DNA from: an uncultured Clostridia bacterium
GTDB lineage: Bacteria > Bacillota > Clostridia > Christensenellales > UBA3700
Length of the DNA stretch: 64,000 nucleotides
Reading direction: 5' to 3'
NCBI GenBank assembly: GCA_947038565.1
Contig: CAMQWP010000003.1
Span: forward strand, 85,183 to 149,182
The position numbers were made by a program, and so were the translations under genes. Shown one piece after another: positions 4,066-57,405 of this stretch. Each line of letters starts with the position of its first letter. Position 1 is the stretch's first letter. Below the pieces are notes generated by a model. It ran no database searches and had not been told where the DNA came from. It was given only the letters and a program-made list of their open reading frames with translations.

Positions 4066-5442
4066 ATGACTAAACCAGAAGCAAAAAACTTCATTCAAAA
4101 CATAATTTATAATCCCCTATTCATTGTGATACTGGGGCTTATTACTTTCCTTTCTTGGATGACAGATCAAAGCGTTACTGGTATGGTTGCACTACTCCTT
4201 ATCGGATCAGTGATACTTATATTTAATAAAGATATTCTCCCTCTTCTACCGTGTTTGATCTATACTATATACTGCACTTCAAATAGTAATATTCTTTCTA
4301 TAAAATCAAATATTATTATTTTTGTAATCGTTTGTTTGATTTTTTCAATATGCCTAATAGCACACTTTTTTATATACAAACCTAAGTTTAAACTATTTAA
4401 GCTGACCATACCTCTTATACTGGTAAGTCTTGCTTTATTCCTTGGTGGTATTGGTTTCTTATCCTTTAAAGAGTATTTCAAAGGCATTACCTTTATGCTC
4501 TCTCTCGGACCACTTCTACTATTCTTATACTATTTTATCATGTTGTTTTTAAGCCCACCATCGTGGGTAAATGCACGCAATTATCTTTGCTATATTATGA
4601 TTGTACTAGGCGTAGTAGTGCTAGGTCAATTCGCAATGTTCGTAATACGTGCCGATCTTCCTATCTTAGACCTTATCCGTGTAGTCATGGACGTAGGCTG
4701 GGGAAATCGTAACGGTATAGCTATGACTCTTGTACTTTGCTTTCCGTGCGCTTTCTATATTGCTTTTGGCAAGAAACGCATGGCAGTACCATTCTACCTT
4801 CTTAGTTTTATAATGTACTTTGTTGTTATATTTATCTATTCAAGAGGTGGCGTAGTTGCAAGTTCTATCACTATGCTTGCACTTGTAATATACTCTACGA
4901 TTAAAGCACCAAATAAAAGTTATTTCTTTAACAGTATTGCTATCGTCATAATAATATTGTCCATTTTCGCTATTATTAGTCCAGATACCATACTCGCTAT
5001 TATTGATAAACTTACTAGTTTTGATGGTATTGGTAGTAGCGGTAGAGATTCGCTATTTAAAGAGGCTTATAAACTGTTTATTGAAAACCCTATCTTCGGT
5101 GCGGGTGTTGGCTATATTGGAAATATCTTCTCTGTACCAGAGTTTTGCATGTACTGGTTCCACTCTACTCTTTTCCAAGTAATCGGAAATATGGGCTTAG
5201 TCGGTATCATAGCTTACTCTATCTTCTACATCACTAGAGGTATTACAATGTTCAGCTCGCTGAAGCCTTTCAATATTCTTTTGTCAATGGCTATTATAGG
5301 TTTTGAGATTCATTCAATGGTCGATGTCGGGACTTTCAATCCGTTCCCGTTCATGTTCATTATCATAGTGATGTCGGCATTCCTAGAGTATTCAAATTCT
5401 CTTGATCATGTATCGACTGATACTATACAGCTAGCAGTATAG
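4066..5442 (+). CDS. O-antigen ligase/polymerase-like (Wzy_C) membrane protein
   Basis: 458 aa and highly hydrophobic. It has a central SRGG-containing loop and overall architecture like the O-antigen ligase family. Confidence 0.6.
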   Translation: MTKPEAKNFIQNIIYNPLFIVILGLITFLSWMTDQSVTGMVALLLIGSVILIFNKDILPLLPCLIYTIYCTSNSNILSIKSNIIIFVIVCLIFSICLIAHFFIYKPKFKLFKLTIPLILVSLALFLGGIGFLSFKEYFKGITFMLSLGPLLLFLYYFIMLFLSPPSWVNARNYLCYIMIVLGVVVLGQFAMFVIRADLPILDLIRVVMDVGWGNRNGIAMTLVLCFPCAFYIAFGKKRMAVPFYLLSFIMYFVVIFIYSRGGVVASSITMLALVIYSTIKAPNKSYFFNSIAIVIIILSIFAIISPDTILAIIDKLTSFDGIGSSGRDSLFKEAYKLFIENPIFGAGVGYIGNIFSVPEFCMYWFHSTLFQVIGNMGLVGIIAYSIFYITRGITMFSSLKPFNILLSMAIIGFEIHSMVDVGTFNPFPFMFIIIVMSAFLEYSNSLDHVSTDTIQLAV

Positions 5443-5686: not shown

Positions 5687-5868
5687 AAGTGGGAGGTCGG
5701 CTTTCGCCCACCTCCCACTATTCAGGTTTATTTCGCGTTCGCTGCCGCATTATCTCGCGCTGCGATAATGCTTGGTATATCAAGTGGGAGGTCGGCTCTC
5801 GCCCACCTCCCACTATTCAGGTTTTATTTCGCACTCGCTGCCGCATTATCTCGCGCTGCGATAATGCT
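5687..5868. repeat. tandem duplication (period 95 bp) of the ntpD 3' end plus its downstream hairpin
   Basis: 5687-5772 and 5782-5868 are near-identical direct copies separated by TGGTATATC. Each holds the last 14 codons plus stop of ntpD and an AGTGGGAGGT...ACCTCCCACT hairpin. Confidence 0.9.
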
Positions 5869-6480
5869 CTTAACCTTCATCAATCTAACAATATTACCAC
5901 GCTCGTTTTCGTCAAGTTTCATAGTGATGTCCTTTATTGCCTCAGTAGTCTGAGGTATCATAACATACTCTAACGCATTGACACGTCTACGATTTTTCTC
6001 TATCTCGTAAGCTAGCATGTTTGTAGTCTTCTCGACCTCAGCTAACTTTATAAGTTTCTCTGATAATTTTGATATAACAGCAATAGATGAGTCAAGCTCA
6101 CTCGTTACTGTCGCAAATGAATAAGGATATAAACTCTTAGAATCTGACTTTTTGATACCTATCTTAGGAACATTTACGCTCATTACATTATGCGTTGATA
6201 GCTCCAACTCCATAGATACTGCAGGCATGCTAAGAGCCTCCTCAATAGCAGAACTCTCACTAACAGCCTTAGCCAACATAAAGTTTGTTAATGCCTCACC
6301 TAGCTCCTTTTCCACTTCAAGTCGCACTTTCATATTCTCTTTTGCATATCCAATAAACTGTCTAATCATCTCATCAGACTTATCTTTAAGTAGTTTATGA
6401 CCACGCACAGCAGTCTTACGGCGGTCTTTTAACCGTCTAAGCTCCATTCGTGTTGGATTTACCTTTAACTTCGCAGCCAT
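5824..6480 (-). CDS. ntpD: V-type ATP synthase subunit D
   Basis: 218 aa. N-terminus MAAKLKVNPTRMELRRLK... is typical of V/A-ATPase D. It is the last gene of the ntp operon. Confidence 0.85.
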   Translation of the reverse strand: MAAKLKVNPTRMELRRLKDRRKTAVRGHKLLKDKSDEMIRQFIGYAKENMKVRLEVEKELGEALTNFMLAKAVSESSAIEEALSMPAVSMELELSTHNVMSVNVPKIGIKKSDSKSLYPYSFATVTSELDSSIAVISKLSEKLIKLAEVEKTTNMLAYEIEKNRRRVNALEYVMIPQTTEAIKDITMKLDENERGNIVRLMKVKSIIAARDNAAASAK

Positions 6481-17464: not shown

Positions 17465-18691
17465 ATGTCTAATTTTGGTCAAATCATGAAAGACTTTTTT
17501 TTATCCGAAGCATTCGAGGGCGTGTGCTGGTGGGTCATAACGACGGTGATACTATGTGTCGCATCTCTTGCCATGCTTATAACCATGACTTACACTCTTA
17601 CCCGACGCGCTAAGATTAATGCTAAGTTTGTGTACGAGCAAATCAACGCTGTACATACAAACAATAGCAAAGACTCAACGTTATACGCCCCTCATGAAAA
17701 TATATCAATCAATACCGACGAAGAGATCGCCGTCACTGATAGTACATTATCTAGCACTGAAAACACTTTCATAGATATAGTAGAAATAAAAGAAGATATA
17801 CCTATCACACCCGATAGAGTAAGATCTCAAAATAAGTCAAGTGTTAGCAAAATACTAAAAGTCGCTAAAACCGATAGAAAATATGGAGAACATGAGCATA
17901 ATTATTTTGCTATAAATTTTAGTGACAAATCATCAAATGACAATGACACTAGTATGATACCTATCTCTAAAATGAAAGCACTCAAGCCGACTAATTCCGA
18001 CAAGTCAAAAACTGCAACTACTACAAAAGTTACATCGGTTACTACTAAATCAAATGTAAAAGCTAAAACTACTACAACATTAAAGCCAATAATTAAAGCA
18101 AATAATACTATCAAACCTATTACAACAGCTAAGCCAGTTGCAAAGATAAGCAAATCATCTAATGCTACTAGTGCAGTAGCAAAGCCTACTACTAAACAAA
18201 TAAATATCGCTAAAACTATAAAGGTACTAGATAAACCTACTACTAAGCCTATAAGCAAAACTAAACCTATAGTTACGGTAGCAAAGCCTACAACTAAAAC
18301 AAAGAGTACACAAAGCACTGACAAGTCAAAAACTGCAACTAAGGCAAAACCTACATCGGTTACTATCAAACCTACTACAACAGCTAAGCCAGTTGCAAAG
18401 ATAAGCAAATCATCTAATACAGCTAGTGCGGTAGCAAAGAATACTACTAAGCCTATAAGTATCGCTAAAACTATAAAGGTACTAGATAAACCTACTACTA
18501 AACCTATAAGTAAAACTAAACCTATAGTTGCGGTAGCAAAGTCTACAACTAAAACAAAGACTACACAAAGCACTGACAAGTCAAAAACTGCAACTAAGGC
18601 AAAACCTACATTGGTTACTATCAAACCTATTACAACAGCTAAGCCTACTACAAAAAATACAACGCCGTCTACCAAGGCTAAGAATAAATAA
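17465..18691 (+). CDS. single-pass membrane protein with a Lys/Thr/Pro/Ala-rich tandem-repeat tail (function unknown)
   Basis: 408 aa with a GGAGG RBS. One N-terminal TM helix is followed by RRAK; the C-terminal ~230 aa are basic low-complexity repeats. Confidence 0.7.
   Translation: MSNFGQIMKDFFLSEAFEGVCWWVITTVILCVASLAMLITMTYTLTRRAKINAKFVYEQINAVHTNNSKDSTLYAPHENISINTDEEIAVTDSTLSSTENTFIDIVEIKEDIPITPDRVRSQNKSSVSKILKVAKTDRKYGEHEHNYFAINFSDKSSNDNDTSMIPISKMKALKPTNSDKSKTATTTKVTSVTTKSNVKAKTTTTLKPIIKANNTIKPITTAKPVAKISKSSNATSAVAKPTTKQINIAKTIKVLDKPTTKPISKTKPIVTVAKPTTKTKSTQSTDKSKTATKAKPTSVTIKPTTTAKPVAKISKSSNTASAVAKNTTKPISIAKTIKVLDKPTTKPISKTKPIVAVAKSTTKTKTTQSTDKSKTATKAKPTLVTIKPITTAKPTTKNTTPSTKAKNK
18122..18650 (+). 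repeat. in-frame 255-bp (85-codon) tandem repeat, 2 full copies plus a partial copy
   Basis: ACAACAGCTAAGCC... restarts at 18122, 18377 and 18632. The two full copies differ by scattered substitutions. Confidence 0.9.
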
Positions 18692-26704: not shown

Positions 26705-26780
26705 TGGCGCCTTAAACAGGACTCGAACCTGTGACCCTGCGGTTAACAGCCGCATGCTCTACCAACTGAGCTATTAAGGC
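26705..26780 (-). tRNA. tRNA-Asn (anticodon GTT), CCA encoded
   Basis: Folded by hand into a 76-nt cloverleaf: acceptor GCCTTAA/TTAAGGC, D arm GCTC..GAGC, anticodon arm TGCGG-CTGTTAA-CCGCA, T arm ACAGG-TTCGAGT-CCTGT, 3' GCCA. Confidence 0.95.
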
Positions 26781-32674: not shown

Positions 32675-33582
32675 AAAATACCCCCTACTTTAAGCCCTGA
32701 TACTATTGAATTTGATTTTATTGCAAAACCGATACTGAATGATAAATCCGTATTTGGTTCAGTCTGATTAACTTTCATTAAGTAATTAAATCCTACCACC
32801 TCGCCCTTGCTATTGAACATAACTGAGCTTGTTGAAGTGTACTGAAGAAATTTATTATTCTCAATATGTCCTGAATACGCGTCCGAATCGTCTATAAGAT
32901 GATTACCAGAAGTATACATACTTGCAGGCACTATTCCGTCTCCGAAAATATCCATACCGTCCTCTTCCGAGTCTTTCGAAAAGTCAAGTTGAGTATTAGA
33001 TACCAATACCTCAAACAATCTACACTCACCCATAAAAGTAGATATCGCAAGCGTATTACTGCCAAAGACAAGCTCGTCCGAGTCGCCAAAAACGCAAGGG
33101 ACTAACTTCCTAGTATCATTTGGAATATCTGGATTAGGTATATAATCTTCAAGCTGAAGAAGCACCAAGCCTATATCACTAGCCTTATCAATTTTAGGAT
33201 AAAGCTCTACTGGTTTCTCACACTGATATTTGTAAGATTTACCTTCTGCACTTTTTACAGTTGCGAACAATTTGATATTACTAGAAAATCCTGAAATTGG
33301 ATAGTACTTCGGAACACTTTGCTTGTTTACTAGCAAGTTATTATCATCGACAACAAGTCCTGTGATATAATTTACAAGATACCATTCGCCTTCTATCTTT
33401 TGATGTACCTCAATATTTGCTATTGATGGCATAGCAGTAACAGCGACTCTCTCATAAACCGTAGCGTCGTTGGCGATGTCTACATCTATATCACGTGTGT
33501 CAAAGTTACAGCCCGTCAAGGCGAATACTGATAACACAAGCACTATAGAAAGCACTAGAATTTTGCTAAACTTAGCCTTCAC
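32671..33582 (-). CDS. lipoprotein paralogous to the adjacent S1 protease, with altered catalytic residues
   Basis: Lipobox LTGC at residues 22-25. Hand alignment to the neighbour gives VNKQSV vs TNDHVV and TSTSSVMF vs GNSGGGF, with a shared …IGFAI… end. Confidence 0.6.
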   Translation of the reverse strand: MKAKFSKILVLSIVLVLSVFALTGCNFDTRDIDVDIANDATVYERVAVTAMPSIANIEVHQKIEGEWYLVNYITGLVVDDNNLLVNKQSVPKYYPISGFSSNIKLFATVKSAEGKSYKYQCEKPVELYPKIDKASDIGLVLLQLEDYIPNPDIPNDTRKLVPCVFGDSDELVFGSNTLAISTFMGECRLFEVLVSNTQLDFSKDSEEDGMDIFGDGIVPASMYTSGNHLIDDSDAYSGHIENNKFLQYTSTSSVMFNSKGEVVGFNYLMKVNQTEPNTDLSFSIGFAIKSNSIVSGLKVGGIL

Positions 33583-34480
33583 TAATCATCTCCATAACTT
33601 GTTTTTGCAAGCTATCGTTCTGATGCATTGTCCATATTTCCACATGGTGAGCAGTGTCTCCAGCATTGATATTTAAAAGCTGAGACAGTGCCTCTACTTC
33701 GATAATATGCTCTGAAGTGTAAAGCTCAGTACTACAACTAAAATCTACATAATTCCCTGACCTATCAGCTTTATCGAATTTTTTCTCAAGCATTTTGCCA
33801 TTACGAATAAAATAGACAGCACCTTCAGTATTAAGCACACCTATCTTAAGTGGGCCGTCGCAAATCTCTTTTTGTTGCAAAGATATGTAAGTTTGATTTA
33901 GAGTAAGCCTATCATCTCTAATATTAGTGTAAGGCCATAATACTATGTTTCTATTTGCAAGAAGACCAGTATCATCAGTAGCCATAGGTACGATCGCAAG
34001 ACCACCCTTATTCATAACTGACAATGCCCAAAGAGCAAGAGTCACGGTTTTATCAGTAAAATTAAAGAATGTGTGATCAAGAGTTACCACTCCATTATCG
34101 TCCATTGTCACAGAGATACCTTTTCTGATACCAGTAGTGCACTCGTTAGCGCTGAAAAAAACAGCACCATTATCTAGCATCTTAACTTCAACAGGGTAGT
34201 TGTCAGGAAAATAAGACGCCTCATTCTCTGGAGAAGTCCAAAGTCTATGACCGCCGTAAATATGCCACATTTCACCTTTTTTAAAGTTCGCGTCTAGGTA
34301 ATCGCTAGAACGATTAACATTATCATCAACGTCGCAAAACATCATATTGTCTTCATCAGTAGTACCATAATAGATAATACGAGGGCCAACATCAGTAGTG
34401 ACTCTAAGCAGAACATCACCATTAGTTATCTCGATACAATTACCATACATCATATATTTAACTTTATTAATATTAACCAT
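33572..34480 (-). CDS. hypothetical protein, mutarotase-like/DUF4380-like (tentative)
   Basis: 302 aa. GPRI… and GGHRLWTSPE segments are recalled from DUF4380. Overlaps the downstream gene by 11 nt. Confidence 0.35.
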   Translation of the reverse strand: MVNINKVKYMMYGNCIEITNGDVLLRVTTDVGPRIIYYGTTDEDNMMFCDVDDNVNRSSDYLDANFKKGEMWHIYGGHRLWTSPENEASYFPDNYPVEVKMLDNGAVFFSANECTTGIRKGISVTMDDNGVVTLDHTFFNFTDKTVTLALWALSVMNKGGLAIVPMATDDTGLLANRNIVLWPYTNIRDDRLTLNQTYISLQQKEICDGPLKIGVLNTEGAVYFIRNGKMLEKKFDKADRSGNYVDFSCSTELYTSEHIIEVEALSQLLNINAGDTAHHVEIWTMHQNDSLQKQVMEMISEG

Positions 34481-34486
34481 GAAAAA

Positions 34487-34705
34487 TTACTCCTCAATTT
34501 TTATAATGTCTGAAACACCCAAAAGGTAATCACACGTCACACCGAACAAATTAGCAAGATCTATAAGCGACTGGAAATTAGGTTCTTTAAGACCTCTCTC
34601 CCAATTACTAATGGATACTTGCGATACGCCCATGTATACAGCAATATAATTTTGGTTGTAACCTTTATTTTTCCGTAAACTTACCAATCTTTCTCTAAAC
34701 TTCAT
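34487..34705 (-). CDS. XRE-family helix-turn-helix transcriptional regulator
   Basis: 72 aa; canonical HTH_3 pattern (…NQNYIAVYMGVSQVSISNWERG…). Confidence 0.85.
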   Translation of the reverse strand: MKFRERLVSLRKNKGYNQNYIAVYMGVSQVSISNWERGLKEPNFQSLIDLANLFGVTCDYLLGVSDIIKIEE

Positions 34706-34782
34706 AATTCACACCTACATATTTATATACTACATTACATTATAACATAATATTAAATACTTTACAACACTAATGGTTATAT

Positions 34783-35454
34783 TTACAAACAAATTTCTAC
34801 AGAATCTAGATCATCAACGATTTCATCATCTATCATAATTAGCGTAGACAAAACATGTTCGACATAATGACTATTATTTGACTTTAATAAAACTTCTTTA
34901 ATGTCATTAATTATGTCAATCATTTGCATATGAAAGTTTTTAAGCATTTGCTGAATAAACGGGAAACAATCATGAATATCACCGACAACATGCTTAACAG
35001 CATAAGCGACAACTCCCGCAACATCGGTATACTGCATACCCTCGCCTACAGAATCATAATCAACGCCATAACATCTACCATCTTTGATGATAAAATTTAC
35101 AAAATTGATGTCTTGGATAATATAACCCTCAGCAAGCGAATAAAATATTTGCAGAAACACACTAAGCTCGTTCGCAAGACGGATAAGCCCTGCATTATCA
35201 TCAGTCATAGTGTAATTTATATACTTATCAAGAAAAGAATCACCCTCGATATATTCGTATATAATATAATCGCTTCCCTGCTCTACCACCATTGGTGCAT
35301 AGCCCGATATAGACAACTGGTTCAAAATAGTCATCTCTAACTTTCTAGAACTCATGTCGCGATATTTTTTCAAGACAACAAGCTCACCCTCATTATTTTT
35401 AGCGAGGTAAACTTTATCAGTCCTACTCATTTGTTTTAACAATTCAATTCTCAT
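34783..35454 (-). CDS. small protein-kinase-fold protein (atypical kinase/phosphotransferase)
   Basis: 223 aa. It has VVLKKY (VAIK-like Lys), a YEYIEG hinge, IQDINFVNFI (D..N catalytic-loop-like) and GVDYD (DFG-like). Confidence 0.5.
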   Translation of the reverse strand: MRIELLKQMSRTDKVYLAKNNEGELVVLKKYRDMSSRKLEMTILNQLSISGYAPMVVEQGSDYIIYEYIEGDSFLDKYINYTMTDDNAGLIRLANELSVFLQIFYSLAEGYIIQDINFVNFIIKDGRCYGVDYDSVGEGMQYTDVAGVVAYAVKHVVGDIHDCFPFIQQMLKNFHMQMIDIINDIKEVLLKSNNSHYVEHVLSTLIMIDDEIVDDLDSVEICL

Positions 35455-35615
35455 TATAACCCCTTAATATGAACACACATATTCGATTATTCACACAAGT
35501 ATATTGTGCTATATTATAGTGATAAAGTCAAGTAAAATCGTGCAATAATTAGTATTATTGTATAAAGATGTATTATTAACATATAATAAGGATACCAAAG
35601 GTTAAGGAGGGAAAT

Positions 35616-35924
35616 ATGAAAGGAATTAAATGTACTACAAGCAATTGCGAATTTAATGAAGGATGTCACTGTAGAGCTGGCATAGTAAATGTCGATAAAA
35701 ACGGCAATTGTGACACAAAACTTAAGCGTGAGAATGGTGTAATCGAGCAAGAATTTATAAACATGGAGACTGCATCAGAGTTTGCATTCGACGAAAGTGA
35801 TGATACTTTTATCGAATGTAGCAGTACAGGATGTGCTCACAACAAAAACAATAAATGCATGTCTGAGCATATTAATGTCGGCGACAAAATGTTGCATACA
35901 AAGTGCAAAACTAGAGAAAAATAA
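35616..35924 (+). CDS. DUF1540 cysteine-rich protein (two repeats)
   Basis: 102 aa with an AAGGAGGG RBS. Two C-x-x-x-C…C-x-C modules (IKCTTSNCEFNEGCHC and IECSSTGCAHNKNNKC). Confidence 0.7.
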   Translation: MKGIKCTTSNCEFNEGCHCRAGIVNVDKNGNCDTKLKRENGVIEQEFINMETASEFAFDESDDTFIECSSTGCAHNKNNKCMSEHINVGDKMLHTKCKTREK

Positions 35925-36091
35925 CCTGAAACAGCACTAAAACTAATCAAAACATGTCATATGCTATAAAACATTAGTCAAGTGTACAATAATGCATGAT
36001 CAATTATTTGGTAATGCACAATGCATAATATTCTAATTTTTTTGTTACATTTACTATGCTATGCAGCAACTATGATATATAGTACAACAAA

Positions 36092-36129
36092 ATTACCCAC
36101 AGACATAGTCTGTGGGTAATTCTTATTTT
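36092..36129 (+). terminator. strong hairpin terminator after the DUF1540 gene
   Basis: ATTACCCACAGAC (36092-36104), ATA loop, GTCTGTGGGTAAT (36108-36120), then TCTTATTTT. Confidence 0.8.
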
Positions 36130-36502
36130 GTATTAACAATCTATCATAAACTTTAACTAATCAGATTAGTTTATATTATATAGATTTATCTATTAAATTG
36201 TCTAATCATTTTCATTTTAAAATATTGTCTCATAATACAATATCATTCATTTTAGGCATTTGCAAAGTAATCTATACTACTTCTAATTACTAATTATGCA
36301 AGCTCATAATACTTGCTTTTGAAGGTATTATTTACTTAAAATTCCTATCTAGAGCCGTCGCTTTTCTTGATTATATTTCTATCGGAATTCAATTATGATC
36401 CTATATAATTTAGCGGTTTTGCTCTCATTAAAAAATAAAATTATTCAATTGTTGTTAAATTTCAATTTGCTCATTGATATCACATCAAAGCATTCTTTTT
36501 TA

Positions 36503-36656
36503 GCTTGAGTTGCTACACGTACACTTAGACTCTAGCTCGTAGACTATTGGTCATATTCGGTCTTTGGCTCATCATGATACTGACTCCAACTCACCGTCGA
36601 TCGGTCACAATTGAGTCACCTCGTACAAACACTCTCAGCCTGTAAGGCATTTAGCC
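36503..36656. repeat. degenerate copies of the 57-bp unit family
   Basis: The block opens with GCTTGAGTT like the array flank. It contains …CATGATACTGACTCCAACTCAC… and …ATCGGTCACAATTGAGTCACC…, alignable by eye to the 57-mer, and ends with GCCTGTAAGGCATTTAGCC. Confidence 0.6.
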
Positions 36657-36911
36657 TATTATTACATGCAATACTAATATGTTTATTTACATTATTAGTA
36701 TTATTTGCTACTACTAAGATATAAGATTTTACCTTATTCTAATCTTTAATCGAGGATAAGTTTTTATATCGTGCGCTAAATTTTTACAATGATATTGTAA
36801 ATTGCTATTTCACAACTTCTTATGCCTCTAGTATTTTTTTTTGCTTTTCGCACTATTATTATAAAATAATATGCTTGGCTTGAGTTCGCCTTTCGGACAT
36901 TTTGACACCAG

Positions 36912-37268
36912 CTCATGGACTTCTAGTCTTATTTATCGGTCATCGTCTCTCTTGATACCTGACTCAAACTCTTGGACTTCTAGTCTTTTTTATCGGTCAT
37001 CGTCTCACTTGATACCTGACTCAAGCTCTTGGACTTCTAGTCTTTTTTATCGGTCATTGTCTCACTTGATACCTGACTCAAACTCATGGACTTCTAGTCT
37101 TTTTTATCGGTCATTGTCTCACTTGATACCTGACTCAAACTCATGGACTTCTAGTCTTTTTTATCGGTCATTGTCTCACTTGATACCTGACTCAAACTCA
37201 TGGACTTCTAGTCATTATTATCGGTCATCGTCCCACCTGATACCTGACTCAAACTCATGGACTTTTGG
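36912..37268. repeat. 57-bp tandem repeat array, 6 full units plus a partial 7th
   Basis: Units start at 36912, 36969, 37026, 37083, 37140, 37197 and 37254. Units 4 and 5 are identical, and the outer units carry a few substitutions. Confidence 0.95.
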
Positions 37269-38130
37269 GCCGTAAGGTCATTTCGTCTCTAGCTCTCTCC
37301 GTCAATGCTTCAGTAGCATTAATATTTTAGGTTAAGAGATACGATTTCCCCATTTCTCTTCTTTGAGGTAAGGTTTTGTAACACTACTTATATGCTATTT
37401 TTTTCATGTAACATATTAGATAGATCTCACAACTTCTTACTGCTCTACTATTTCCTTTTACTTTGCTTTTCTTAAACAATACTTCCTAGACAAATAGTCT
37501 TACGGACATTTAGCTCACGCCCAACGTATTGCTATTATTAAGAGATCATAATTTTTCCCAATATAATTATCTCTTAGTAGAAGAATGCACATGTCGTTAC
37601 GTATTTTTGCATCTAATTAGTTGCAAATCCGCTAACATATTATTTCCTCATAGTAAACTTTTTGTGCTGATAACACTAGCTATCAGAGTATGTAACCAAT
37701 AAGCGAATAAACATTCTCATAATGCTTGACACTTCTAGAAGGATGATATGCAATCATCAAGTTTCTACTTGGTTCGTATTTATAGTCTAGCACCCATGAT
37801 AGCAATTGTCAATACACATTTTGAATATTTTACAAATAAATTATAATAGTGTATTGATTTTATAAGTTTTGCCTACTTTTCGAAGAAAATCTCAATCTTT
37901 TGATATTGATTAGAGTGATTATAGCCTAAATTTAGCTAAATCAATAATCATATCTATATTTTCTAGTCACCATATTTTATGATCAGCAATAAAAAAAAAT
38001 GACTTAAAAGCCATCTTTTTTTTATATCTATTTATTTTGATGTTGTTATATTCATTTTTGCAACATTATATTGCTAGTGTATTTATCTCATATATAGCTA
38101 ATTATGAACAGTTTTTACTTAAATAATAAC

Positions 38131-39702
38131 TTATGCAACTACTATTTCTTCTACAGTTTCATCATTCTCAGGGTCGATATCAGTATCTTTTTTCTTAAGT
38201 TCTATCTTAAAGTTATCATAATCATTTGACATCTTCTCTGATATTGGACGTCTATCCGAAAGTGAACCGATCCATAATGCAGCAGTTGATAGTATAAATC
38301 CTGGTATCAACTCGTAAATTTCGAATATTCCGCCAAGAGGGCTTAGTCCATATCTCCATACAATAGTAGTAACAGCACCAGTTACAATAGATGCTATAGC
38401 TCCTCGAAGTTTTAACTTCTTAGAATACAATGAGAATACGATAAGTGGTCCGAATGACGCTCCAAAACCGCCCCATGCATACTGAACTAACTCAAATATT
38501 TTAGATTCAGGATCTAATGCTAGAAGAATCGCAGCAGCCGATACAGCAACAATAGTTAATCTAGACACTAGCATTATTTCTTTGTCCTTTGCATTGCGTC
38601 TAAAATGTCTTTTATAAATATCCTCAGCAAACGAACTACTTGCTACTAATAATTGGCTATCAGCAGTAGACATAATAGCCGCAAGAATTGCTGATAGCAA
38701 TAGTCCTGCAACCACTGGCCCGAATGACTTTTGTACAAGTAGCATGAATACGGTTTCCGCACTATCATTATTTATTGCACTGTTTAAAACAATACGACCA
38801 ACTATACCTATAAGTATTGCACAAGCCATAGTTATCACTACCCATACAAGGGCGATAACAGTAGCGGGTTTGATTGTCTTTTTATTTTTAGTTGCCATAA
38901 ATCGAACAAGTACGTGTGGCATTCCAAAGTATCCAAGACCCCAACTTATTGCGGTCATTATAGTTATCCAAGAAAATTCCTCACCTTCTACGGGCATTAG
39001 ATTTCCAAGTGCACCACCAATTTGACCAAGTGCATTAAATTGATCGTCAGTAAAACCTTTTAGTACAAGAACTGGCACAATAATAAGTGCGAAGAACATA
39101 ATCAAGCCCTGAACTAAATCCGTCCAAGACACTGCAAGGAAACCACCTAACAATGTGTATATTACGATAATTGCCGCACCGATAAGTAGTGCGTAATGAT
39201 AATCTAGTCCGAAAACAGCATTAAACATTTTAGCACCAGCCGCGAACATTGACGCAGCATAGAAAGTGAAAAAGAATAAAATCACCATGCCTGAAATAGC
39301 CTGCAGAATACCCTTTTTATCGTCAAATCTATTTTCAAAATAACTAGGTACAGTTATAGAGTTAGACGCAACTTCAGTATAGACACGTAGGCGTTTAGCT
39401 ACAAATATCCAGTTAGCTGCCGTACCCAAAAGCAATCCTATTGCAGTAAAGATAGCTTCTTTTATGCCAGCAACGCTATTTACAGCAATACCCATACAGC
39501 ACAAACCCGGTAAACCCGTAAGCAACCATCCGCTCATGTCCGATGCCTGTGCGGAAAATGCCGTAACCCATGGATTAAGACTTCTGCCGCCTAGCATATA
39601 GGTAGATGATGTCATCTTTCTCCTATAGAATATAAATCCGATACCTATCATTAGTAATAGGTATAATCCGAATATTAATAATATTATGTGATTATCTTTC
39701 AT
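38131..39702 (-). CDS. putP: sodium/proline symporter (SSS family)
   Basis: Polytopic, with …GGRSLNPWVTAFSAQASDMSGWLLTGLPG…. Start moved to ATG 39702 (MKDNHII) with a GAGGGA RBS. Confidence 0.85.
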   Translation of the reverse strand: MKDNHIILLIFGLYLLLMIGIGFIFYRRKMTSSTYMLGGRSLNPWVTAFSAQASDMSGWLLTGLPGLCCMGIAVNSVAGIKEAIFTAIGLLLGTAANWIFVAKRLRVYTEVASNSITVPSYFENRFDDKKGILQAISGMVILFFFTFYAASMFAAGAKMFNAVFGLDYHYALLIGAAIIVIYTLLGGFLAVSWTDLVQGLIMFFALIIVPVLVLKGFTDDQFNALGQIGGALGNLMPVEGEEFSWITIMTAISWGLGYFGMPHVLVRFMATKNKKTIKPATVIALVWVVITMACAILIGIVGRIVLNSAINNDSAETVFMLLVQKSFGPVVAGLLLSAILAAIMSTADSQLLVASSSFAEDIYKRHFRRNAKDKEIMLVSRLTIVAVSAAAILLALDPESKIFELVQYAWGGFGASFGPLIVFSLYSKKLKLRGAIASIVTGAVTTIVWRYGLSPLGGIFEIYELIPGFILSTAALWIGSLSDRRPISEKMSNDYDNFKIELKKKDTDIDPENDETVEEIVVA

Positions 39703-39745
39703 TATGTAAATCCCTCGTTTTGTTGTAAATTTTGCGTATACATTT

Positions 39746-39774
39746 ATTTTACTAGATATACTTTGTAATGTCAA
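39746..39774 (-). promoter_or_regulatory. putP promoter
   Basis: On the minus strand: TTGACA (39774-39769), 17-nt spacer, TAAAAT (39751-39746). Confidence 0.5.
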
Positions 39775-39990
39775 GCAAAATACCTTTACACGTGTGATTA
39801 TAATGAACATATACTAAATTAATGAAAAATATGTGGATATGCCATATATATTCGTTATTAAACTATAATATACTAAGATATACTATTTGTATAATTATGA
39901 GCAGATATTGCATATACTTATAAATATTTATAAACTCCAACTATTCTATAACGTGAGCTTTTAACCAAAGTCATAACAATAATAAAATGT

Positions 39991-40305
39991 TTATTTGACC
40001 CACTTCTCTCCCCAGCACTGCATATTTTTAATTGTGCAATCTACATCCAAGCCTTTTTCAGTAAGGGTATAACTGACATTAGGAGGTATAACAGGCAACA
40101 CATGTCTAGTTATAATACCTTGAGTTTCCAAATCCCTTAGGCATGAAGTAAGCGTTTTAGGACTTATATTATTTAAACACTTTCTTATCTGTCCAAATCT
40201 CATTTTGCCTTCAAATAGATTTTTAATAATTAGGAAAGACCACTTTCCACCAATTACGTCTAAAGTCTTTTCCACATAGCACTGAATAGTTTTTTCACAT
40301 TTCAT
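39991..40305 (-). CDS. HxlR-family winged-helix transcriptional regulator
   Basis: 104 aa; …LDVIGGKWSFLIIKNL..G..RFGQI…ISPKTLTSCLRDLE… pattern. Confidence 0.85.
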   Translation of the reverse strand: MKCEKTIQCYVEKTLDVIGGKWSFLIIKNLFEGKMRFGQIRKCLNNISPKTLTSCLRDLETQGIITRHVLPVIPPNVSYTLTEKGLDVDCTIKNMQCWGEKWVK

Positions 40306-40428
40306 AATAAATTCTCCTTATATATTTCACTTTTATTTATTTTACTTACATAAATATATTAACTAATAATTAGTATCAAATGTATACTAATTATCATTTT
40401 TGAAATTATATTACAAATATATCACTAC

Positions 40429-40461
40429 TTGACATTATATACTAAGCGTATATAATGTCAA
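40429..40461. promoter_or_regulatory. palindromic divergent promoter/operator between hxlR and the nitroreductase gene
   Basis: TTGACATTATATAC-TAAGC-GTATATAATGTCAA is a 14-bp perfect inverted repeat. It reads TTGACA, 16-nt spacer, TATAAT on both strands. Confidence 0.6.
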
Positions 40462-40496
40462 TAGTAGTACTACAATAACAACATTTAGGAGAAAAT

Positions 40497-41015
40497 ATGG
40501 ATTTTATAAAACTAGCAAAAAAACGCTGTTCAATGCGAGCATTTACTACCAAGCAAGTCGAATGTGACAAAGTTGATATTATATTAGAAGGCGGTAGAAT
40601 AGCTCCGACAGCAGTGAACTATCAACCACATACAATTTTAGAAATAACTGATCCAACATCACTAAATAAGCTCAAGAATAGTGCAAATGTATTTAATGCA
40701 CCTTTAGTTCTAATTGTATGCTGTGACAAGGCAAAATCATGGATAAGAAAATTTGACAACAAGTCTATGACTGATATAGATGGCACAATAGTAGCTGATC
40801 ATATGGTTATGACTGCCGAAAGTCTAGGACTTGGCACTTGTTGGATAACTTACTTTAATCCATCATCACTTAAAGCTGACTTTAATATACCTGAGAATAT
40901 AGAGCCTATTGCGATCATTGCCATAGGCTATGATGGTGCAGTAAGAAGCTCAGAAAATAGACATAATGGTGTCCGTAAATCTATCAGTGATATGGTAGTA
41001 AGTGATACATTTTAA
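40497..41015 (+). CDS. nitroreductase family protein
   Basis: 172 aa with RCSMRAFT… and RIAPTAVNYQP motifs. Divergent from hxlR, which is a common pairing. Confidence 0.8.
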   Translation: MDFIKLAKKRCSMRAFTTKQVECDKVDIILEGGRIAPTAVNYQPHTILEITDPTSLNKLKNSANVFNAPLVLIVCCDKAKSWIRKFDNKSMTDIDGTIVADHMVMTAESLGLGTCWITYFNPSSLKADFNIPENIEPIAIIAIGYDGAVRSSENRHNGVRKSISDMVVSDTF

Positions 41016-57249: not shown

Positions 57250-57405
57250 TATATAATAAAAGACCACCATCTTTCGATAGCAGTCTTATATTTTATATAA
57301 TCACTCTATCTTCCAAGAAAAAATTCTTGCGGAATTTAGCACCTCACAAAGTCGGTTGCTGTACAATTAACGGGTCCGTTCCCTCCTGTATCTCACAATA
57401 GATAT
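57250..57405 (-). promoter_or_regulatory. SAM-I (S-box) riboswitch with terminator expression platform
   Basis: The minus-strand RNA reads …ATCTATTGTGAGATACAGGAGGGAACGGACCCGTTAATTGTACAGCAACCGACTTTGTGAGGTGCTAAATTCCGCAAGAATTTTTTCTTGGAAGATAGAG…, containing the GAGGGA/GGnCCC, GCAACC and GGTGCTAAATTCC blocks. It is followed by a 12-bp GAAA-capped hairpin (57260-57287) and TTTTATTAT. The CTATC in the terminator arm can pair with the P1 3' strand GATAG. Confidence 0.85.

Follow-up and report, generated by a model that had tools for sequence, protein, structure and literature searches.

To our knowledge, variable internal repeats have been seen in few bacterial RNAs. In Staphylococcus aureus, RsaC carries 133-nt internal tandem repeats in two to four copies, together with a truncated repeat and a conserved 3' domain; it is confined to a very narrow clade, and its length differs between isolates through the number of repeats (PMC6765141). 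Sibling small RNAs (sRNAs), whose clusters have been reviewed (PMC4211561), include the CU-rich LhrC1-5 of Listeria, whose single-stranded pyrimidine-rich motifs, set beside hairpins, pair with AG-rich Shine-Dalgarno regions (PMC5880928). Here we describe a locus that seems to resemble RsaC and the sibling sRNAs in kind, while being a member of neither family: a 57-bp tandem array in an intergenic island between DUF1540 and putP, on a stretch of 64,000 nt from an uncultured Clostridia bacterium (contig CAMQWP010000003.1; hereafter, the window). The array is a strain-variable tandem amplification, by slippage or unequal recombination, of an ancient module of ~57 nt inside E2, a non-coding element that is one of a small, clade-specific family of paralogs.

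The array, at positions 36912-37264 of the plus strand, far outscores every other intergenic tandem repeat of the window (Tandem Repeats Finder: period 57, 6.2 copies, 95% matches, 0% indels, score 622). Full units start at 36912, 36969, 37026, 37083, 37140 and 37197, and a seventh, truncated unit runs from 37254. Compared with the central unit, the six full units have 3, 3, 1, 0, 0 and 5 mismatches, units 4 and 5 being identical. Every unit of the array contains a small hairpin, GGUCA..UGACU, in addition to the motifs TGGAC, CGGTC and GACTC, and pyrimidines make up 65% of the unit's plus strand. The array lies in a 2.2-kb gap, and the sole open reading frame (ORF) of at least 60 amino acids (aa) between the DUF1540 terminator (36091-36121, 14-bp stem) and the putP stop (38131) is the one that traverses it (36871-37275, plus strand, 134 aa). 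DUF1540 and putP are convergent, with the 3' ends of both facing the island. An earlier reading of this DNA, made from its letters only (the sequence-only reading), had described the 57-bp array with 6.2 copies and the same unit starts, a plus strand about two-thirds pyrimidine and the lack of any other ORF of 60 aa or more, and all of this agrees with the measurements. It had also held that the array is not a CRISPR, which the head-to-tail units with 0% indels and without unique spacers confirm. The gene-free island that it saw does lack genes, but is not featureless, since it holds two more paralogous elements and conserved blocks. Its suggestion of a contingency element holds in so far as copy number varies between strains; a promoter-spacing switch for the neighbours is impossible, however, because only their 3' ends face the island.

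Homologs of PutP and DUF1540 were searched for, followed by contig look-ups, and the lineages found in this way are labelled here beside the window species (W). The order putP, island, DUF1540, with the two genes convergent, is kept in four related uncultured Clostridia-like lineages: S (L016 and L017; PutP 81% identical to W), U (L020; PutP 83% identical to W, right part of the island only), T (L023; DUF1540 91% identical to W, left part of the island only) and V (L032, whole island). Within the island, the array sits inside E2, a non-coding element of ~170 nt that consists of a head (GGCTTGAG...), modules and a tail (AGCTCTCTCC), behind which come a hairpin and a T-run. The E2 head (36877-36911, plus strand; GGCTTGAGTTCGCCTTTCGGACATTTTGACACCAG) aligns with the heads of T_E2 (L023 4497-), V_E2 (L032 5190-) and S_A and S_B (L016). 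The array itself comprises the amplified internal modules (module alignment A5), and the truncated terminal module (37254-37303, plus strand) ends in the CU-rich tail GGTCATTTCGTCTCTAGCTCTCTCCGTC (37276-37303), which is the best conserved part of the family.

E2 has relatives on either side of it. E1 (36503-36660, plus strand), 375 bp upstream, is a paralog with ~1.7 degenerate modules that aligns with T_E1 (alignment A4). E3 (37424-37530, plus strand) is a remnant composed of a copy of the E2 upstream block (37424-37464) and a short piece, GTCTTACGGACATTTAGCTCACGCC, and is supported by a direct repeat, D3, with 80% identity and a spacing of 617 bp (alignment A3). With the array collapsed to one unit, E2 matches E1 at E = 4e-6 (nhmmer), and the family profile scores E1 at E = 7e-37. 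The island elements are thereby shown to be paralogous, and each is followed by a hairpin with a U-run; their promoters match the consensus only weakly, and V lacks them.

Lineage S has no 57-bp array and carries two elements of ~170 nt, S_A and S_B, with two modules each; both start with GGCTGGAG..GCCCCTCGGAC, continue with the two modules and end in CGTCTCAAGCTCTCTC.GTC, beyond which lie a small hairpin and a T-run. In nhmmer comparisons, S_B is hit by collapsed E2 with E = 2.7e-7 and by S_A with E = 1.6e-17. Between W and S, the element tails are among the few parts of the island that can still be aligned: the E2 tail region is 81% identical to S_B over 58 nt and 88% identical to S_A over 26 nt, the surrounding island being otherwise not alignable. 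The tail piece AGCTCTCTC is also found in V_E1 and V_E2. Between W and T the island has ~74% column identity, while the T DUF1540 protein is 91% identical. A five-element profile matched only island copies across the 416 kb compared, and it detected T_E2, which was absent from its training set, at E = 2.9e-7; the array units match positions 25-107 of the cross-species element profile. The E2 homolog of V has a tandem array of its own at the same place, with 58/59-bp units in 2.9 + 2.8 copies flanking a 100-N gap and 94-99% alike, and the V unit is homologous to the W unit yet much diverged (alignment A5). The T contig stops within the first unit of T_E2 and the U contig just right of the expected array position, ends that would fit an unresolved repeat without proving an array.

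All eight elements seen have at least two modules. Since this holds for every element and a second lineage has its own array, the module is ancient, and the multi-copy state exists in at least two lineages (W and V), each homogenised internally, which is the pattern that concerted evolution would give. The recent expansion proposed in the sequence-only reading fits the central units, but the module itself is older than that expansion. The same reading would have taken a lack of homologs elsewhere, along with other signs, to favour a neutral minisatellite, and homologs do exist in related species.

The family appears to be confined to the DUF1540/putP island and to this clade. An exact-pattern scan for TACCTGACTCAANNNNNTGGACTT in genome, metagenome and viral contigs, with a pattern that is too specific, returned chance single matches only, for example in L011 inside a coding region. 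Scanning viral contigs for the conserved tail gave nothing real, and neither did blastn against plasmids and phages. None of the 4227 models of Rfam 15 matched the window elements at gathering score or at E up to 10, and no Rfam match was found in the unexpanded sister island of L016; at gathering score, the window as a whole yields just a SAM riboswitch (57303-57404, minus strand, 55 bits) and a tRNA gene (26708-26780, minus strand). More distant relatives (L019 and L030) have unrelated protein genes at this locus. Between DUF1540 and putP, L019 (6911-12493) has a gene for a 1007-aa protein, a sigma-70-family gene and a 397-aa gene, and L030 (6309-9004) has two FtsX-like genes. In L025-L029 there is no putP beside DUF1540 (6312 onward), L018 ends just past putP, and synteny is lost in L021. 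The DUF1540-putP interval therefore looks like a hotspot of variable content. The idea that the island derives by decay from the genes at the L019/L018 locus was rejected, as tblastn found no trace of them in the island.

The modules follow a common grammar. Fourteen modules from four lineages share the invariant positions G1, A2, C3, C5, C11, G15, C17, G23, G35, T37 and C38, and the core reads GACyC.A.C.C...G.C.T...G, then a U-rich linker, then CGGTC; after the core, internal modules continue into a short hairpin region and terminal modules into TTCGTCTC.AGCTCTCTC. The eight elements contain 29 plus-strand copies of YGGWC and no minus-strand copy. Their density of 25 per kb compares with 0.9-2.5 per kb elsewhere in the window, and the 2 to 5 copies per element with 0.5-0.9 in dinucleotide shuffles. 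Within a module, the starts of the two motifs are separated by 7 to 21 nt. Thirteen of the 29 are of the GGA type (CGGAC or TGGAC) and 16 of the GGU type (CGGTC or TGGTC); E1 and T_E1 lack GGA altogether, and the GGA of the W unit falls in a predicted stem.

Variation between strains was assessed on ten same-species contigs from independent assemblies, found by an exact match to the DUF1540 product. The array is present in all ten and none spans it cleanly: scaffolds bridge it with a 100-N gap and SPAdes contigs stop inside it, and the array accounts for the breaks in short-read assemblies of this organism here. In L001, whose flanks are identical to those of the window, the units read a, b, c, d, gap, d, e, e, which makes at least seven against six in the window. 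Other unit variants, differently ordered, occur in L003, L004 and L031, the last of which has at least six units on one side alone, in a variant order unlike that of the window. The array is polymorphic between strains in unit number and order. Because assemblies break within it and L001 and L031 show other counts or orders, the 6.2 copies of the window are a lower bound and probably not the true copy number. Strains L002-L004 share long identical stretches with the window and have differing patches within 33200-35200, 37200-38000 and 39800-40600, with up to 26 differences per 200 bp near 39800; one of the patches is the right half of the island. This patchiness suggests recombination mosaics. 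Constraint could not be gauged from strain polymorphism, given the recombination mosaic and too few differences.

E2 is preceded by a promoter-like site, TTCACA-17-TATTTT (36809-36837, plus strand), ~40 nt upstream of its head, with homologs in T (TTAACA-16-TAATAT; L023 4429-4456, alignment A3) and S (ATTACA-16-TATATT; L016 12745-12718). Also upstream lies an AT-rich inverted repeat, TTACAAT-GAT-ATTGTAA (36784-36800, plus strand); inverted repeats of other sequence take up its position in T (CACAAT-TAATT-ATTGTG) and V (ATTGATT-ATTCTAAA-AATCAAT), as read by eye. At the other end, the hairpin AATGCT-TCAGT-AGCATT, then AATATTTTA (37304-37329, plus strand; -5.1 kcal/mol, z = -1.8), which the sequence-only reading had correctly picked out as weak, is a candidate weak intrinsic terminator and likely that of E2. 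Hairpins of differing sequence, followed by U-runs, stand at the corresponding place in S_A, S_B, T_E1 and V_E2; those of S_A and T_E1 were called terminator-like in the plus orientation by the scan, those of W_E2, S_B and V_E2 are weaker, and the end hairpins of W_E2, S_B and T_E1 have fold z-scores of about -2. E1 is followed by an AT-rich hairpin (~36664-36716, plus strand; -12 kcal/mol, z = -2.6). The unit hairpin GGUCA..UGACU and an inner stem keep G.U/U.G pairs in W and T, which on the other strand become A-C mismatches, and the T_E2 unit hairpin has one A-U to U-A swap. Single-unit folds reach z = -1.9, -1.8 and -1.0 on the plus strand against -0.6, -1.6 and -0.1 on the minus strand, and a two-unit fold z = -2.9 against -2.3. 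Given a motif spacing of 7-21 nt and the reliance on wobble pairs, a flexible RNA fits better than a helically phased DNA site. A closing helix between the 5' and 3' ends (GCUUGAG with CUCNAGC) was considered and dropped, as it contains a mismatch in every element.

Taken together, motif polarity, wobble pairs, 3' hairpins with U-runs and a partly conserved promoter block favour what would be a plus-strand CU-rich sRNA. We estimate the probability at about one half that the elements are plus-strand, pyrimidine-rich sRNA genes in which the repeats form a multivalent or a tolerated domain beside the CU-rich tail. A repeat-module non-coding RNA had been among the options of the sequence-only reading and is the one we favour, though on the pyrimidine-rich plus strand and not as a purine-rich minus-strand transcript. 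Several observations weigh against this assignment. The promoter-like block is absent in V, promoter-like sites are no commoner in the region than in shuffled sequence, and the terminator hairpins are short and weak. The RNAalifold consensus is weak on both strands, at -3.6 kcal/mol for units and, for whole elements, -4.8 (plus) against -6.4 (minus); the whole-array fold is no better than shuffles on either strand (z ~ -1.3), and the V unit folds, if anything, less well than its shuffles (z = +1.3). Covariation, which had been proposed earlier as a check, is not significant in the unit hairpin, with 85 of 500 shuffles reaching the observed score. The YGGWC counts are not independent because the elements are homologous, and they describe what was kept while the remainder diverged. 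Lastly, the best-conserved promoter of the island is on the minus strand and aimed at the array (37812-37784).

In the proposed plus-strand sRNA, each element would consist of a weak sigma-70-like promoter, a head (GGCUUGAG), at least two modules, a CU-rich tail (AGCUCUCUCC) and a small terminator hairpin, each module offering two YGGWC motifs joined by a U-rich linker and a GACUC motif. The E2 RNA would measure ~485 nt or longer here, against ~200 nt with a single unit. Its repeats would multiply the YGGWC...CGGUC...GACUC motif set for whatever recognises it, and the amplified modules could make the RNA multivalent, which would then hold numerous copies of its partner, acting as a scaffold or as a sponge for protein or RNA; alternatively, they could be a tolerated variable domain beside the conserved CU-rich tail. 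Like the CU-rich sRNAs of Gram-positive bacteria, the tail AGCUCUCUCC may base-pair with purine-rich sequences of the Shine-Dalgarno type. A bolder version, in which E2 would be a new multivalent sponge or scaffold RNA whose valency is tuned by repeat gain and loss, with concerted evolution in at least two lineages, and which would act as a heritable RNA-level 'rheostat' titrating its partner, is speculative and in our judgement decidedly improbable.

Like RsaC, E2 has a variable array, a truncated last unit (37254) and a conserved 3' tail (37276-37303), and belongs to a narrow clade. The two differ in that they have no sequence relation, the E2 units are 57-59 nt and not 133 nt long, E2 stands behind a strong terminator and appears free-standing, as a candidate transcript only, and the module of the E2 family is ancient and occurs in all paralogs. 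The likeness to LhrC, whose siblings are ~100 nt each, is that E1, E2 and E3, and also S_A and S_B, are related elements side by side in one intergenic region with a conserved AGCUCUCUCC tail; there is no homology, however, and LhrC is not known to have any internal tandem amplification. The sponge RNAs CsrB/RsmZ and CrcZ contain degenerate, non-tandem repeats of GGA or A-rich motifs. E2 would likewise hold many copies of a short motif (at least 14 YGGWC, counted), but about half of the E2-family motifs are GGU and not GGA, and its repeats are near-identical tandem copies. With 16 of 29 motifs GGU, E1 and T_E1 lacking GGA and the GGA of the W unit in a stem, where CsrA sponges typically expose theirs in hairpin loops, we rejected a CsrA sponge of the CsrB/RsmZ type.

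The array could instead be a neutral minisatellite, that is, a functionless, slippage-prone repeat in a fast-evolving spacer whose likeness across species is residual ancestry. Unit number and order vary between strains, significant structure and covariation are missing, the island diverges faster than its flanking genes (the W-T comparison above: ~74% column identity against 91% for DUF1540), and distant relatives hold unrelated protein genes at the locus, all of which would be expected of such a repeat. We nevertheless consider it unlikely, because the element tails, at 81-88% identity, are among the few blocks alignable between W and S, some positions of the module core are invariant in four lineages, every element retains at least two modules with the same motif polarity, arrays stand at the same position in two lineages, each homogenised, and a gene-free stretch of ~2 kb is maintained in five related lineages of a compact genome.

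A DNA-level array bound by protein, such as an iteron array, a centromere-like site or a platform for a nucleoid protein or regulator, would account for short motifs repeated in fixed orientation and for the weakness of RNA structure, with direct YGGWC repeats and a GGTCA/TGACT inverted pair as the sites. Centromeres of the sopC type consist of 43-bp repeats, each with an inverted repeat, and in type III antitoxins a transcript of a short tandem array is processed into its single units; the architecture of the array recalls both, as tandem units of a few tens of bases with internal dyad symmetry, but the partner genes are absent at the array, there being neither a ToxN-like toxin directly downstream nor par/rep genes nearby. 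The neighbours of the array are housekeeping genes and conserved genes of unassigned role. The within-module motif spacing of 7-21 bp and the lineage-dependent module length ill suit helical-phase sites, the 'inverted repeat' is complementary only if G.T is counted as a pair, the island is not accompanied by any rep, par or regulator gene, and the flanking block persists in species without the island. Convergent neighbours leave no adjacent promoter to control, and plasmid or phage similarity is missing. We disfavour a sopC/parC-like iteron or centromere array, which the sequence-only reading had entertained, given no linked rep/par genes, the motif spacing and no plasmid or phage match, and hold a DNA-level function in general to be quite improbable. 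A replication origin or terminus at the island was rejected, as cumulative GC skew drops monotonically across 34000-40000, the 6 kb around it.

Transcription could also run the other way. The minus-strand promoter is a near-consensus TTGACA-17-TG.TAGACT (37812-37784) that is invariant in W, S, U and V (L016 11930-11959, L020 ~2805-2835 and L032 6119-6147) while its surroundings diverge, and it could drive either a short independent RNA or a long one antisense to the elements. The latter would be a purine-rich non-coding RNA of ~1.7 kb that passes antisense through E3, E2 and E1 to the bidirectional DUF1540 terminator, whose hairpin leads into a T-run whichever way it is read; between the promoter and 36121 the scan called no canonical terminator on the minus strand, and the majority of window genes lie on the minus strand. 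On that strand, however, the unit hairpins lose their wobble pairs and the fold z-scores are poorer than on the plus strand, the element-end hairpins have their U-runs on the plus strand, and conservation downstream of the promoter is poor, with a hairpin ~110-130 nt downstream in each lineage that could end a short RNA (alignment A1, read by eye). Nor does an RNA from the right half of the island have special complementarity to the elements: it is no better than in shuffles (z = +1.3, -0.3 and -0.6), and pairing between the elements and a minus-strand RNA was rejected for that reason. A long antisense transcript seems to us a rather remote prospect, and we treat the minus-strand promoter provisionally as a separate feature.

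A protein-coding origin of the repeat, in which the 134-aa ORF would encode a Ser-rich protein with a 19-aa repeat, is suggested by a period that is a multiple of three (57 = 3 x 19) and by one of six frames staying open through the entire W array, but is very improbable and was rejected: no Shine-Dalgarno sequence was found before its ATG, a 1-nt indel in the head separates W from T and shifts the frame, S_A, S_B and T_E1 have stops in each of the six frames and the V homologs in every frame, no Pfam match was obtained, and differences between units are mostly non-synonymous (variants read by eye). A ToxI-like type III antitoxin RNA or a type I toxin-antitoxin locus, of which the former are tandem repeat arrays and the latter often tandem repeats of ~500 bp, would suit an island built of paralogous super-units but has next to no chance of being correct, as neither strand has a toxin gene after the array, no island ORF of at least 60 aa exists outside it, none precedes the convergent putP in L016 and L032 either, and no conserved small ORF with a ribosome-binding site was found among W, S, T and U.

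Other features of the island and window deserve mention. Directly after E2 lies a hairpin with a C-rich loop, AAGAGAU..UUUCCCCAU..UCUCUU (37334-37360, plus strand), with a second window copy at 37539-37580; this AAGAGAU-loop-AUCUCUU hairpin has 90% identity to L016 12205-12176 and also occurs in L020 and L032 (~5726-5752 and 5933-5968). Its C-rich plus-strand loop UUUCCCCAU resembles the seed loops of Gram-positive sRNAs, and a conserved box, TTGAGGTAAGGTTTT, adjoins the hairpin. In S, between the DUF1540 stop and its terminator (L016 13428-13540), there are 11-, 21- and 32-bp repeats with TTTTTGCACGT-like units that are absent in W. Elsewhere in the window, a 96-bp unit is repeated 1.9 times with 95% identity at 5687-5868, in an AT-rich region after a plus-strand gene ending at 5442, and the 3' end of a minus-strand ORF (5824-6480) overlaps its last 45 bp; each 96-bp unit has two strong GC-rich hairpins, GTGGGAGGT..ACCTCCCAC and GCATTATC..GATAATGC, and no Rfam match at gathering score. 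At 18106-18645, a 255-bp unit is repeated 2.1 times with 93% identity and an inner 51-bp periodicity, probably within a coding region.

If the elements are not transcribed, the array would be an ordinary minisatellite in a variable intergenic hotspot. If they are transcribed, they would represent an undescribed sRNA family of an uncultured Clostridia-like gut lineage, one in which the number of modules is visibly evolving: one species has two in each element, two others have homogenised arrays with at least six, and the arrangement varies between strains. Transcribed elements of this kind would provide a second, independent case beside RsaC, with a conserved motif grammar, and would offer a handle on whether repeat number sets regulatory dose.

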